This document shows, piece after piece, positions 11,066 through 31,107 of a DNA stretch of 61,003 nt. The DNA is from an uncultured Verrucomicrobiota bacterium (GTDB lineage Bacteria; Verrucomicrobiota; Kiritimatiellia; CAIKKV01), in NCBI GenBank assembly GCA_964609905.1, contig CAZSUH010000006.1:1-61003 (forward strand), read 5' to 3'. The position numbers and the translations under genes are program-made. Each line of letters opens with the position of its first letter. The stretch's first letter is position 1. Under the pieces are notes generated by a model, which had not been told where the DNA came from, did no database searches, and saw only the letters and a list, made by a program, of their open reading frames with translations.

Positions 11066-14000
11066 TCACGGTCTGGACTTCACCGCCCTGAAACCCACGA
11101 AGTCGGAACGCGCGGCCGGCTCGCTTTCCAGGCGTTGCGCAATCCGGCACCAGGAGGCGTCGGTGGACCAAGCGCCTCCTCGCACCACGCGGTTCGAGCC
11201 GGACACCGGATCCCAGCACCATTCCGCCACGTTTCCCGCCATGTCTGACAAGCCGGGCGTATAGCCATGAGCGCCAAATGAACCCACCGCGCAGGTGTAA
11301 GGAGCAACACCGTCATTACCGAGCGGGTTGAATTCCCGCGTGGGGCTCACATCGTAACCATAAACGCGGTCGCTGAAATAGTTCGCGTTGCTGTGGCCGA
11401 TCGTATCGCCCCACGGGAAGCGCCGGCCTTGCACGGGGCCCCGGGCCGCATATTCCCATTCCGTTTCGGCGGGCAGGCGATACCCTCCCCAGACATTGAC
11501 GCAGGAATCGTCCAGGTCAAGCTGGCCGTTGGTATAGACCGAGTCCTTGGCCGCCGTCGTATAATAGGCGGGGATGAGCCCTTCCATCTGGCTGCGGGCG
11601 TTGCACCATTTCACGCAATCGTACCAGTTGACCATTTGCACGGGATGGTCTGCCGCCTTTCCGGCTCCTTCCGGAAGATCCGTGTACCCATGGGTCATGC
11701 CCCAGGCGCGGACCTTGTCCCACATGGCCTTTGTCACTTCCGTGTTATTCGCGTAAAACACCGCTTTGTTCGTGATCGCATAGGGGCCGGCGTCGGGATC
11801 GGTTCCCGCGGCAACGCCGGCGCGAATGGCGCTCATGCCCTCCGGCGGTATTGGGACGATCTCGATGCCGTTGAAAAACGCATAGGTGCCGTCGAGGCCG
11901 ACGCCCCGGATTTGCAGGCCGTTTCCATCCTTTACCGTGACTCTGAACAGCGGGCGGTACGCGCGATACTTTCCCCCCGTCTTAGCCAGCACATCCAGGC
12001 GGGGCAAAACCTTCACGCCCTCGATCAGGACTTTAAACACGCAGGCGCCAGCCTGGTTCTGCATCAGTTCGGCAAACTTAAGGCGAACGGAGTAGGTGCC
12101 GTTGGGCAGTTTGGGGAAGCTGTAGGTAAGCCGGGGGGCGAATCGGCAGTCCTGGAAGACCTTCATCGGAACGCCTTTCACCTTGTCGATAAGGGCGGTT
12201 GTCCGGAACACGGATCCGCTCGAGTAGCCCCGATCGCGCAGCCACGCGCCCACGCGCTTGCCCCCGCAATTAACGCGAATGGCGGCAAGCGGGACCGGCA
12301 TCACTTCCACCGCAAAGGCGGTGGAAACAGGATAACCGCTGGCCGTGTGCGTGGCCGTCACGGTGACCGTGGACATTCCCGTTCCGGGTCCGAATACCAG
12401 CGTCAAAAGCCCATTTGTCAGACCGGTCTGCACAATGCCAGGCCGATCGGCCACGCTGGTAAATTCCAGTCCGCTGCCGGCGAAGACAAGGGCCAGGTCG
12501 CAGACGTTCGATTTCCCCGCCGTGGCCAGCACGTCGGCGATGGGGCTTCGGACCCAGGGCAATCCATCGACGGCGGGAACGGCCAGCGTTTCGGAGAAGG
12601 GGCCGTAGCCCTGCGGGAAGAAGGCCCGCAGACGCAGGTAGTTCGTGACGCCCGGCGCGAGAACAGGCACGGCAAGGCTGGTGTCGCCGGCCGCCGCGTT
12701 GGTGCTCTCGAACAGGAAGTCGTTGAAGTCGGGCGAAGCCGAGACTTGGAGGTGGTAGCGGCCGGCACCGGCCAGGGACTCCCAATGGGCCACCAGGCCG
12801 GTGGCCGTGATGTCGGTGGGCGAAAGCAGCACGGGGGCGGGCGCCGGCAGGAAGGAGAAGGCGTTGCTCAACACGAGGTCGCCGCCGGTAGGCGACGACA
12901 CGCGGACGTGGCCGGTGCAGGGAGCGGCGGCGATGGGCGCCCACACGCGCACCCAGTCGTCGCTCTGGCCCAGGATGACGGCCGGCTGCCCACACAGCGA
13001 AACCGATGTGATGTCCGCATGCCGTCCGAGCCCCGTGCCGGACGCCAGGATTTCCACGCCGCCGCCGGCGAAGCAGGAGGACGGCGTGACATTCAGGAGA
13101 ACGCCGCGCGTGATGAAATTCTGCCAGGCCGTCCAGTCGCTGGCGCCCTGGGAGTTCGAGGCCCGCACGCGCCAGCGGTAATCCGATCCCACGCTCAACC
13201 CCGCGATGACGGCGGACGTGACGGTTCCCGCCAATTGTTCTGCCAGGATGTTGGTTCCCGCGAGGGTTTCCAGTTCGATGTCATAGATCGAAACCGGCAT
13301 GATGTCGCCGGGCTGCCAGTGGAGCGTGGCGGTCGCGGCGCGGATGTCCGTCACGGCCAGGTCCGTCGGTAGGGGCGGTTTGGCCAGATATTCGTAAGCG
13401 CCCATATCGACCGTGCCCACGACCCGCGGGTCGCCCTTCAGGTCGATGGCCGCAACGACCCGGCTGTTGTTGCCGGCGTCCACGCAGGGAGACGCGGCAG
13501 CCGGTCGGACGCTCCCGGGGACAAACAGGGGGTCAGCGACTTTGCAGCCCGCGACGCCGTCGCTGACGCCATCGCCCGCGTCGGTGAACGTGATCCTCCC
13601 GCCGATCGCCAACAGATCTTGCGGCGCTTGTGCTGGGGCCCGGTTTCCCCACACGATGGCGTTTCCGAGGTCGCCGCCGCCGGGCAGGTAGGCGCCGCCG
13701 ACCTCGATCGAAGCGACGTTGGAGACAATCGTGCAATGGACGGCCTCGCCGCCCGCGAACAGGCAGAGGGCGCCGCCCCGGCCGCTGCTGTTCTCCGTCA
13801 GGATGCAGTTGTTGACGCGGCCGGTCTCCATGACGAACGCGCCTCCGCCGTATTCGCCGGAGCTGTTGGCCGTGACGATGCAGTGGCGAAGTTCGGCTCC
13901 GCCGGCGAGAAAGGCGCCGCCTCCTGAACGGTCCTGCGTAATGTCCGAGGCGAATGCGGTGTGACCGTCCGTCAAGGTAAAGCCATGGACCACGACGCCC

Positions 14001-29292: not shown

Positions 29293-31107
29293 TCAATTCT
29301 CTGGTGCCCCCAGATCGCTGACCTGGCTGATTCGCTCAAGACGGAACGTTCCCCGGGCGCGGATCGTCTTATTCAGGCCGTCGACCGTTTCTTCAAACGT
29401 GCCGCCGGCTTCGCGCGTTCCCCAATTCCGGTTCGCGATACCTCCGACCGGGTCGACGGCCTCGAAGCGGAACACCAGTTCCCGCGTGATGGTATGCGAT
29501 TCCACGCCTTCTGCCAGGGCGGAGGCGACGCCGTTGTCGTACCGGAGATTGTCGTGCTGCGGGTGGTACCGGTGGACAAAGGGATTCACGGGGTTGTCGT
29601 AGGGGAGCGTGACCACCGCATGGAGAGTGTGGGGCGCCCCGAACGCGCCCGTCATGTTCACCGGTCGCAGGGTCGTCGGGAAACAGACCGAACTGATCCG
29701 GACGATGCGGGCGTCGGCGTGCTGGCGGGCGAAATTCTCCGCGTCGGTCTCGTCGGCGAGAACGGAGACAACGCCGGTGACGGAGGAAAGGGATCCGGAC
29801 GCATCGTCCGCGCTGCCCGTGCGCCAGGCGAGGAGAGCGCGCTGCAGCAGCTTGGCCCGGCCTTCGGCGTCGATGTGCACGATCACGCGATATTGGTAGG
29901 GTATGCCCACGGGCATGGGCCCGTCGCCCGACCAGACATTCGTCACGCCTTCGCGGGTGGGGGCGCGTTCCACATCCGTGACGCTGACGCTGCCTACCCA
30001 TAGCCCGGCCGGTGCGAGTTGGGAGGCGATGCTGCCGTCGCAGGACACGCCCACGCGCACATCCACGGCTGCCGCCGGGAATGCCGCGTTGCCGCCGTCC
30101 GTGACGCGCAGGACGCTCTGCCAGGCGGCGCCGGCGACCCCGCCTGTCAGCGATTGGGGATCGGGGATCAGGGTTAGGCTGAGCGAGCCATGGGCGGGAA
30201 TGTTGGTCGTCAGCGTGTCCGGCAGAGGCTGGTAGTCGGAGCCGACCGCCGCAGCCTTATAGAGCAGCGTCATTTTGCCGAGGAGCGCTGACGCTCCGGG
30301 AAGGTCCGGCGGAGGCTCCGATGCATGGTGCCGGATCTGGATGGTCCGGCCGGTGGCGGTGAGGTTTTCGACAACGAGGGCTTGCGCGGCCACGGAGCGG
30401 CCGAAGTCGAGGAGGCGCGAGCCCGACCCCGTGCGGACCCGGATCGGGCCTGCGTAGTCCCGGACGTTGGCGTCCGCGGCGATCCAGTAGGCTTCCCCGC
30501 CGCGGATCAGTTCCGTGGCCGGGGTCCAGATCCGCTGGGGAGTATTGTTCGGTCCCGAAACTCGGAAAACCGTGGCGGTGGCATTATTCACCGTAAAATC
30601 GGACGAGAAGGAAAAGAATTCGGTAAAACTGACGGCTGGACTCGTGGAAACGGGAAGACCGGTCAGGTTCAACGCGCCCGGGAGCCAGCGGGTGGCGTTC
30701 AGAACAGGTTTTCCGGTTACGTGCAAGGTGAAGGGAGACGCGTTTGTGGCGACATAAACTTCATAGGATTCGCCAGCCAACAGGTTGCCGAAAGAACTGC
30801 CGCCCGAATTGCCGGAAAACCAGGATTCCCAGTCCGCGCTTCGCGGGAACAGAAGGGCGGGATCGAGGTCGAATTCCATGCCGGTGCCCGTCCGTCGCCA
30901 CCAGAAGACTTTTTCAACCGGCCGGTTGCTGAAAATCACAGCACAGTCGGATTGGACGGGCTGAACGAGCAGTTGCACACCGTTCCAGCCGGGGGAAAGG
31001 GGAATCGCCTGCGTGAACCACTGGGCGGAGAGTGGAATCGGGCCTAGCGCTAACAGGATCAAGGCCGTAACGGCAGGCCAGAAAACGTTTTGCCCCCCCC
31101 TACACAT
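29293..31107 (-). CDS. Secreted hypothetical protein (604 aa), first gene of the operon
   Basis: Signal peptide MCRGGQNVFWPAVTALILLALGPIPLSAQ. GGGGAG Shine-Dalgarno-like sequence a few nt upstream. Beta-rich with no recognisable catalytic motif. Distinctive NPVNPFVHRYHPQHDNL block near the C-terminus. Confidence 0.75.
   Translation of the reverse strand: MCRGGQNVFWPAVTALILLALGPIPLSAQWFTQAIPLSPGWNGVQLLVQPVQSDCAVIFSNRPVEKVFWWRRTGTGMEFDLDPALLFPRSADWESWFSGNSGGSSFGNLLAGESYEVYVATNASPFTLHVTGKPVLNATRWLPGALNLTGLPVSTSPAVSFTEFFSFSSDFTVNNATATVFRVSGPNNTPQRIWTPATELIRGGEAYWIAADANVRDYAGPIRVRTGSGSRLLDFGRSVAAQALVVENLTATGRTIQIRHHASEPPPDLPGASALLGKMTLLYKAAAVGSDYQPLPDTLTTNIPAHGSLSLTLIPDPQSLTGGVAGAAWQSVLRVTDGGNAAFPAAAVDVRVGVSCDGSIASQLAPAGLWVGSVSVTDVERAPTREGVTNVWSGDGPMPVGIPYQYRVIVHIDAEGRAKLLQRALLAWRTGSADDASGSLSSVTGVVSVLADETDAENFARQHADARIVRISSVCFPTTLRPVNMTGAFGAPHTLHAVVTLPYDNPVNPFVHRYHPQHDNLRYDNGVASALAEGVESHTITRELVFRFEAVDPVGGIANRNWGTREAGGTFEETVDGLNKTIRARGTFRLERISQVSDLGAPEN

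Follow-up and report, generated by a model that had tools for sequence, protein, structure and literature searches.

What kind of apparatus is encoded by six tightly packed genes whose products all appear to be exported and whose core members are named by no curated family? The genes in question, P1 to P6, lie on the minus strand between positions 11066 and 31107 of a 61-kb stretch of DNA (contig CAZSUH010000006.1 of an uncultured Verrucomicrobiota bacterium; hereafter the window). An original prediction, drawn from the bare sequence, had described them as an undescribed cell-surface or secreted apparatus with a tail-fiber-like protein and a TcA-like giant among its products, and had guessed at contact-dependent delivery as one possible function. 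Our analysis bears out both likenesses, the former in P2 and the latter in P3, and the delivery guess fits the evidence as well. The novelty claim needs narrowing: although the core proteins lack a curated family, P3 has the predicted fold of the A subunit of Tc/ABC toxins and some of its relatives have TcB-TcC genes beside them, so that the set matches a characterized system in part. We propose that the operon probably encodes a highly divergent, Sec-exported TcA-type complex with accessory proteins, which would act by forming pores or by translocating cargo.

The proposal starts from the structure predicted for P3. Residues 1292-2491 were modeled with AlphaFold2 (AF2) from a 49-sequence alignment, and the model has a mean predicted local distance difference test score (pLDDT) of 76.6. 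It runs from a helical domain through a long beta-hairpin to two helices, the first of 70 and the second of 142 residues, joined by a low-confidence loop, and ends in a C-terminal alpha/beta domain. In a Foldseek comparison of this model with the PDB the top 16 matches were all TcA subunits, namely TcdA1, XptA1, XptA2, TcdA4, YenTcA and TcaA-TcaB, with E values from 4.5e-8 to 4.5e-3: matches 1 to 15 fall between 4.5e-8 and 1.8e-5 at a probability of 1.00, the 16th stands at 4.5e-3 with a probability of 0.98, and the best match outside the TcA group has an E value of 0.044. The best alignments to TcA cover about 1070 of the 1200 model residues, including the helical domain (residues 1316-1766) and the region of the helical hairpin, whose tip loop carries the motif P-x-x-V-G-x-[SA]-x-D conserved in the P3 family. 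The C-terminal domain, at the position where the BC component (TcB-TcC) docks in TcA, is among the best-conserved parts of the protein, and the extreme C-terminus is likewise conserved (...TYSxSGN). Two further motifs are invariant, GHGDAYGH (residues ~1523-1530) and GFNPNEEH (~813-820), and a hydrophobic segment is found at the N-terminus of 80 of the 85 homologues. The region that in P3 holds the Laminin_G_3 insertion is variable; the domain itself was found in 8 of 12 diverse homologues.

The second line of evidence comes from the neighborhood of P3 relatives. In 4 of 80 loci (L010, L012, L014 and L067) the gene immediately after a full-length P3 homologue is a TcB-TcC (SpvB/RHS) fusion, of a length to match (2047-2381 aa), that combines SpvB, an FG-GAP propeller, TcdB_toxin_midN, RHS_repeat and an RHS core, and that carries a hydrophobic, signal-like segment ahead of the canonical SpvB start. 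The toxin end of the L067 fusion is a VanY-type D-Ala-D-Ala carboxypeptidase (E 3e-20), and such a peptidoglycan peptidase suggests bacterial targets in that case. This fusion lies at 16381-22524 in a metagenome-assembled genome (MAG) labeled Lewinella and is followed by a 137-aa open reading frame (ORF) that could be an immunity gene; together, fusion and downstream ORF suggest an antibacterial Tc-like system.

P3 is neither rare nor confined to the lineage of the window. Besides the window copy, the protein collection holds 85 full-length homologues from Kiritimatiellae, Lentisphaerae, Verrucomicrobia and others, all named either "LamG domain-containing" or "hypothetical". When one genome was scanned for each species by a sequence pattern, at least 579 genomes proved to encode P3 relatives. 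By submitter label the carriers include Verrucomicrobia, Kiritimatiellia, Lentisphaerae/Victivallales, Omnitrophota, Hydrogenedentes, Acidobacteria/Thermoanaerobaculia, Nitrospirae, Geobacteraceae, Lysobacterales, Marinicella, Wenzhouxiangella and Lewinella, and the labels of the loci compared here also span Gammaproteobacteria and Bacteroidota; among the cultured carriers are Pontiella sulfatireligans and two members of Marinicella, M. pacifica and strain sp. W31. Five MAGs labeled Klebsiella pneumoniae or Akkermansia muciniphila (L031, L032, L041, L035 and L080) hold Verrucomicrobia-like versions of the locus, and these species labels are probably wrong. Our coverage of the literature, which was incomplete, turned up no description of this branch, which is weak evidence of novelty.

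Gene order was compared across the 80 loci kept, of which 60 were informative for P1 in that they offer at least 3.5 kb of sequence upstream. P1 lies upstream of P3 on the same strand in 58 of these 60, P4 follows P3 at a distance of up to 3 kb in 39 of the 70 loci informative for it, and the P2 family is present, by clustering, in 41 of the 80, sometimes in two or three tandem copies. P5, by tblastn, is found in three of the 80 loci, with a fourth (L053) recovered by blastp of called ORFs, and P6 in five, of which the nearest relative, L009, has the sole full-length copy and the others single-domain matches; L009 is also the locus that keeps the six-gene order of the window. Because P1, P2 and P4 recur and P5 and P6 are rare, the conserved unit, as read from gene order, is P1-(P2)-P3-(P4). 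The original prediction had the six products acting together: homologues of the 604-aa, 387-aa, 2491-aa and 271-aa proteins are indeed syntenic in many genomes and phyla, so P1 to P4 very likely do act together, whereas P5 and P6 fall outside this core. A second architecture, seen in Gammaproteobacteria and Acidobacteria, consists of a large DUF11/beta-propeller protein, a peptidyl-prolyl isomerase (PPIase), P1, P3 and a Calx-beta/beta-propeller protein. The PPIase is of the PPIC type (~335 aa) and occurs in 13 loci, in many of them directly upstream of P1; these loci include L021, L025-L030, L038, L044, L057 and L063, are mostly labeled Gammaproteobacteria or Acidobacteria, and in several cases have neither P2 nor P4. 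L036 has two modules on one contig: some 3 kb beyond the first, in the downstream direction, comes a second, partial one (20584-27293) with a P1-like protein of 540 aa, a P2-like protein of 378 aa and a P3-like protein of at least 1296 aa.

The near-universal partner, P1, has no match in Pfam, NCBIfam, PHROG or the PDB sequences and no detectable relatives of known function; the family nevertheless comprises 2160 representative clusters at 50% identity, and a repeat homologue search with the 34-sequence P1 alignment gained almost nothing. Its NPFxHxYHPxHD motif was compared in 34 homologues drawn from several phyla: N508, P509, H512, H515, P516 and H518 never vary, and D519 is conserved in at least 90% of the 34 and invariant among the 14 close ones. 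The motif is a possible metal site or interface. The AF2 model of P1, from a shallow alignment, has a pLDDT of 64 and is of low confidence at the motif too; it takes the form of tandem immunoglobulin (Ig)-like/PapD-like beta-sandwiches, and we therefore describe the protein as all-beta and Ig-like only. P1 appears to comprise two separable modules, since in some loci its module forms the C-terminal part of far longer proteins of 930-1714 aa (L075 3-5147, L077 1-4368, L042 3999-6791) and other loci share its N-terminal 380 residues only. Single-linkage clustering joined P1 with P3, and P1 was thus considered as a P3 fragment; direct comparison shows no homology between the two and the idea was rejected, the joining probably being due to P1-module fusion proteins or shared domains.

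The fiber-like character of P2 is supported by a profile of 29 homologues that matches the solved phage tail fibers 9qgo (1e-12), 9nxk (2.4e-9) and 6ov6 (4.3e-6), alongside weak matches to a PHROG tail fiber and to NCBIfam Bdello_MAT_N (17.6 bits against a cut-off of 60). Conservation in the family is confined to the N-terminal 150-190 residues and the remainder is variable, which is the usual layout of an anchored fiber with an exchangeable tip. Two or three tandem P2 paralogues stand between P1 and P3 in L017 (6512-9707), L068 and L069, an arrangement that looks like diversification of a targeting module. P4 itself falls just short of the TSP3_bac threshold, scoring 24.6 bits where 25 are required, but the domain is present in 22 of 28 family members, and the central DxDxDG calcium loops are conserved in the family. 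Larger proteins (499-1363 aa) that begin with the N-terminal module of P4 are encoded in the corresponding place downstream of P3, and this pattern suggests a docking module joined to a variable distal part.

The lineage-specific P5 has no Pfam match at E<=0.01, and at E<=10 only chance-level ones (E>=0.04); like most of P3, it drew a blank in NCBIfam and PHROG too. P6 contains the Pfam domains FG-GAP, fn3, TIG, Malectin and FGE-sulfatase, the last at E 1.8e-30, as well as MBG_2/MBG_3. In the domain related to formylglycine-generating enzymes (FGE) the C-terminal motif reads RGGAWSTDASWC, with one Cys and no CxxxxC; the catalytic Cys pair, which we take to be of this form in such enzymes, is absent from the P6 domain, and an active enzyme is thus unlikely. 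A role for P6 as a TcB/TcC protein or a TcB-like docking subunit was likewise rejected, the protein having in common with such subunits no more than generic FG-GAP repeats and containing none of SpvB, TcdB_midN or RHS. Set against these results, the domain inventory originally drawn up for the operon largely holds, with Laminin_G_3 in P3, FG-GAP, fn3, TIG, Malectin and FGE-sulfatase in P6 and, at the borderline, TSP3 in P4, and loses its SHD1 domain, for which neither P5 nor three homologues give a Pfam match even at E<=10. Its likeness to eukaryotic extracellular matrix is accurate as to the domains present, nearly all of which come, however, from the nonconserved P6. The statement that no product has a recognizable catalytic motif needs qualifying: P6 has its FGE-like domain, although without the Cys pair, and P1 and P3 hold invariant His/Asp-rich motifs that look like metal-binding or catalytic sites and match no known family.

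The anatomy of the operon itself proved to be as originally described. Read directly from the sequence, the six co-directional ORFs are separated by gaps of 25 nt (P1/P2), 3 nt (P2/P3) and 12 nt (P5/P6) or overlap, as TGATG at P3/P4 and as ATGA at P4/P5; all six have a high third-position GC content (GC3), like real genes, in a window of 65% GC, and P3 and P6 together take up 25.8% of it, the "quarter" of the earlier description. Each product begins, by eye and by hydropathy, with a short basic stretch followed by a hydrophobic one, as expected of signal peptides. The AT-rich island upstream is indeed the sole one: 31071-31260 is the only stretch of the window with any 100 bp below 42% GC (minimum 27%). 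Its upstream part is the likely operon promoter, although no sigma-70 consensus was found there on the minus strand, and terminator-like sites within the operon are not enriched (9, vs. 13.4 +/- 3.4 in shuffled sequence). From the tight junctions, the AT-rich upstream stretch, the lack of terminator excess and the signal-like N-termini we infer a single transcription unit for exported proteins, which we consider a sound description of P1 to P6. The coordinates of all features are collected in Table 1.

Table 1. Features of the P1-P6 operon and its upstream region (window coordinates; residue numbers refer to the respective protein)
Feature	Position	Strand	Description
P1, 604 aa	29293..31107	-	signal peptide, all-beta
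P1 motif NPFxHxYHPxHD, residues 508-519	29551..29586	-	near-invariant
P2, 387 aa	28104..29267	-	signal peptide, tail-fiber-like; conserved N-terminal module, variable C-terminus
P3, 2491 aa	20625..28100	-	signal peptide; divergent TcA-like (Tc/ABC toxin A subunit)
P3 Laminin_G_3 (concanavalin-like) insertion, residues 597-733	25902..26312	-	Pfam E 2.9e-20
P3 alpha-helical domain, residues 1316-1766	22803..24155	-	AF2 model residues 25-475; holds GHGDAYGH
P3 predicted pore-forming hairpin	21654..22442	-	helix 1887-1956, tip loop 1957-2007, helix 2008-2149
P3 C-terminal alpha/beta domain, residues 2160-2491	20628..21623	-	placed where TcA has its TcB-binding domain
P4, 271 aa	19810..20625	-	signal peptide; small, with TSP3 loops (DxDxDG) of the calcium-binding type
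P5, 156 aa	19343..19813	-	signal peptide; lineage-specific small protein
P6, 2754 aa	11066..19330	-	signal peptide; FG-GAP propeller, MBG, fn3, TIG, malectin, C-terminal FGE-sulfatase-like domain
AT-rich upstream region	31108..31260	-	likely operon promoter and 5' leader
Terminator-like hairpin of the upstream DUF2851 gene	31287-31273		precedes the AT-rich stretch

The operon is flanked by housekeeping genes, with carB converging on the 3' end of P6 and the DUF2851 gene upstream of P1. Elsewhere the window encodes a sulfatase and a Ser/Thr protein kinase (3320-4750 on the plus strand and 37293-38696 on the minus strand), and genes resembling these two are also found close to locus L053 of Pontiella sulfatireligans. 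A block of 72-74% GC extends over 40-44 kb of the window (40000-44000). At 55986-61001 on the minus strand an ORF of at least 1671 aa (GC3 0.88) runs off the end of the window; it is without a Pfam match, has a C-terminal hydrophobic anchor followed by RRKNPAG, and shows no relation to P1-P6, the BC proteins or canonical TcA.

How would such an assembly work? By analogy with the solved TcAs, P3 would form a pentameric shell around a channel built from its helical hairpin (residues 1887-2149), which upon a trigger would be driven through the target membrane. P1 would be an obligatory partner, either as a shell or receptor-binding subunit provided in trans or as an assembly factor, P2 and P4 with their variable C-terminal parts would probably serve as exchangeable target-binding decorations, and P5 and P6 would be lineage-specific add-ons. 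The surface of the target organism may thus be bound via P2, P4 and perhaps P1 before the channel inserts, and any cargo would be supplied by a BC cocoon whose gene lies at another place in the genome; failing that, the complex may be a pore former alone.

Several observations weigh against this proposal, the first group of them concerning the relationship of P3 to TcA. TM-scores (template modeling scores) between the P3 model and TcA are low, at 0.15-0.20, because the domain packing of a monomer model differs from that of a subunit in the pentamer, and the structural comparison covers the C-terminal 1200 residues. At the level of sequence, P3 gave no significant match to the curated TcA models VRP1, Neuraminidase-like, TcA_RBD and TcA_TcB_BD in Pfam and NCBIfam: in Pfam the neuraminidase-like and TcA_RBD models found nothing, and TcA_TcB_BD reached one of 12 family members at a weak E of 0.19. 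A P3 profile run against the PDB sequences retrieved LamG relatives only and no TcA. Four canonical TcA genes were taken from enterobacterial plasmids for comparison; the P3-family hidden Markov model scored no more than 5.8 bits on them in hmmsearch, which is not significant, the C-terminal half of P3 found no match among plasmids by tblastn, and hhalign gave a weak alignment (P 0.004, probability 8.5%), albeit one that is colinear end to end across the C-terminal 1300 residues. Given the fold matches of the model and the TcB-TcC genes beside some relatives, we see in P3 a genuine TcA homologue, albeit a very remote one, whose sequence signal has decayed. The second group concerns the biology. 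Tc toxins are known to be assembled in the cytoplasm and released by lysis, with which Sec signal peptides on all components are at odds, a complex of more than 1 MDa would still have to find its way out of a diderm cell, and the role given to P1 is a guess in view of its low-confidence model. Finally, no TcB or TcC gene is present in the window or in 76 of the 80 related loci.

This last point, together with the reported cytotoxic effects of TcA alone (PMC11435725) and the conserved tip loop of the hairpin, would suit a stand-alone pore-forming toxin or adhesin complex of P3 and P1, which after binding through its fibers permeabilizes the target membrane without any cargo and to which BC is an occasional add-on. 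We consider this unlikely, though it is the strongest of the rival accounts: BC genes of classical Tc organisms can sit elsewhere in the genome, as orphan TcC genes do (PMC7861908), and the conserved P3 domain at the BC-docking position suggests that something does dock there. The Sec signal peptides raise a different possibility, namely that the P1-P3 module acts on its producer, with a TcA-like channel entering the cell's own outer membrane from the periplasm and serving as a conduit or anchor for the neighboring giant secreted proteins, here P6. Giants of this kind (beta-propellers, Ig, cadherin, Calx-beta) flank the module in many loci, the PPIase gene near P1 is of a periplasmic type, the P1 model, for all its low confidence, resembles periplasmic PapD-like chaperones, and no lysis cassette accompanies the operon, unlike at a canonical locus. 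Yet the flanking giants vary in family and position, the variable-tip P2 and the toxin-ended BC cocoons point to foreign targets, and folded multidomain proteins would need an unfolding chamber to pass a TcA-type channel; this account is improbable in our estimate. Least credible of all, at long odds, is that the TcA likeness is convergent or a modeling artifact. P3 would then be a large protein of the cell surface, structural or glycan-binding (a LamG domain combined with a coiled-coil-bearing helical one), and the operon an adhesion locus that pierces no membrane. For this reading speak the absence of significant P3-TcA sequence similarity, the low TM-scores and, as fits glycan biology, the presence of LamG, malectin and FG-GAP domains and of sulfatase genes in the vicinity. 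Against it, TcA subunits are the sole significant structural matches, aligned across nearly the whole model, and genuine TcB-TcC fusions lie directly downstream of full-length P3 homologues in four loci, which is hard to credit to chance.

The TcA-type complex that we favor can be taken one step further, in a tentative form that we hold to be possible but on balance doubtful: the P1-P3 module may be the unrecognized A-type translocator for the widespread Sec-dependent SpvB-RHS polymorphic toxins of nonenteric phyla. It would then be a Tc-like injector, assembled extracellularly or periplasmically and exported by a route other than lysis, with P1 as a new obligatory component and phage-like fibers for targeting. 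Free-living PVC bacteria, Acidobacteria, Bacteroidota and others would turn it on other microbes, and it would pierce the outer membranes of bacteria and bring in, for instance, domains that cleave peptidoglycan.

Tc toxins have been studied as insecticides and as programmable protein injectors, and nearly all those known belong to Proteobacteria, with some more in a few Firmicutes. A sister branch with P3 in at least 579 species genomes and about 2160 P1 clusters would greatly widen the family and bring with it new targeting modules in the form of fibers, TSP3 proteins and P1. It also raises the questions of how a megadalton TcA-like assembly could be put together after Sec export and what its prey might be in soils, sediments and guts. 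The peptidoglycan peptidase on one linked cocoon suggests an antibacterial use of the Tc principle, of which we know no earlier description.

Among known systems, the TcA subunits of Photorhabdus (TcdA1), Xenorhabdus (XptA1/XptA2), Morganella (TcdA4) and Yersinia (YenA1-A2), as well as TcaA-TcaB, resemble P3 most closely. They share with it a size of about 2500 aa and, going by the model, the order of parts in the C-terminal half, where a helical domain is followed by two long antiparallel helices with a tip loop between them and these by an alpha/beta domain; the variable beta-rich insertions of their N-terminal half have their counterpart in the LamG domain of P3. The alpha-helical shell of TcA is interwoven with a neuraminidase-like domain and with receptor-binding domains, which are described as Ig-like (PMC11435725). 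In canonical loci the TcB-TcC gene directly follows tcA, as it does after some P3 relatives; an adjacent BC gene is missing from most P3 loci. P3 further differs in its Sec signal peptide, which the canonical TcAs examined do not have, and in its surroundings: at one canonical Tc locus holin and lysozyme genes lie upstream, whereas no such cassette was seen among the window genes scanned. Its hosts are free-living members of the Planctomycetes-Verrucomicrobia-Chlamydiae (PVC) group, Acidobacteria and other environmental bacteria, whereas a published survey that counted TcC proteins put Proteobacteria at 96% and Firmicutes at 3% (PMC7861908). That P1, P2 and P4 could be add-ons has a precedent in YenTc with Chi1/Chi2, where a TcA shell carries separately encoded, target-binding accessories, the chitinases, as auxiliary surface subunits (PMC11435725); P1, P2 and P4 are unrelated to these chitinases, and their binding to P3 is suggested by gene order alone.

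Two further systems resemble other parts of the assembly. The Sec-dependent polymorphic toxins of the "TcdB/TcaC" class (Zhang et al. 2012; PMC3482391), found in many phyla including Lentisphaerae and Bacteroidetes, share with the P3-linked BC fusions the order of signal peptide, SpvB, integrin-like propeller, RHS and variable toxin end. That class comprises the cargo protein only, no A-type translocator being named for its nonproteobacterial members in the part of that survey drawn on here, and the window contains no protein of this class. P2, for its part, resembles phage tail fibers and the mosaic adhesive trimer (MAT) fibers of Bdellovibrio in combining a conserved N-terminal module with a variable distal part, but unlike phage fibers it has a signal peptide and no phage genes nearby. 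The P3 branch, finally, has in P1 a near-constant extra partner and in P2 and P4 frequent ones that are not described for Tc toxins. Our verdict is that P3 represents a deep branch among the A components of Tc toxins, one that is widespread, unannotated and equipped with partners of its own.

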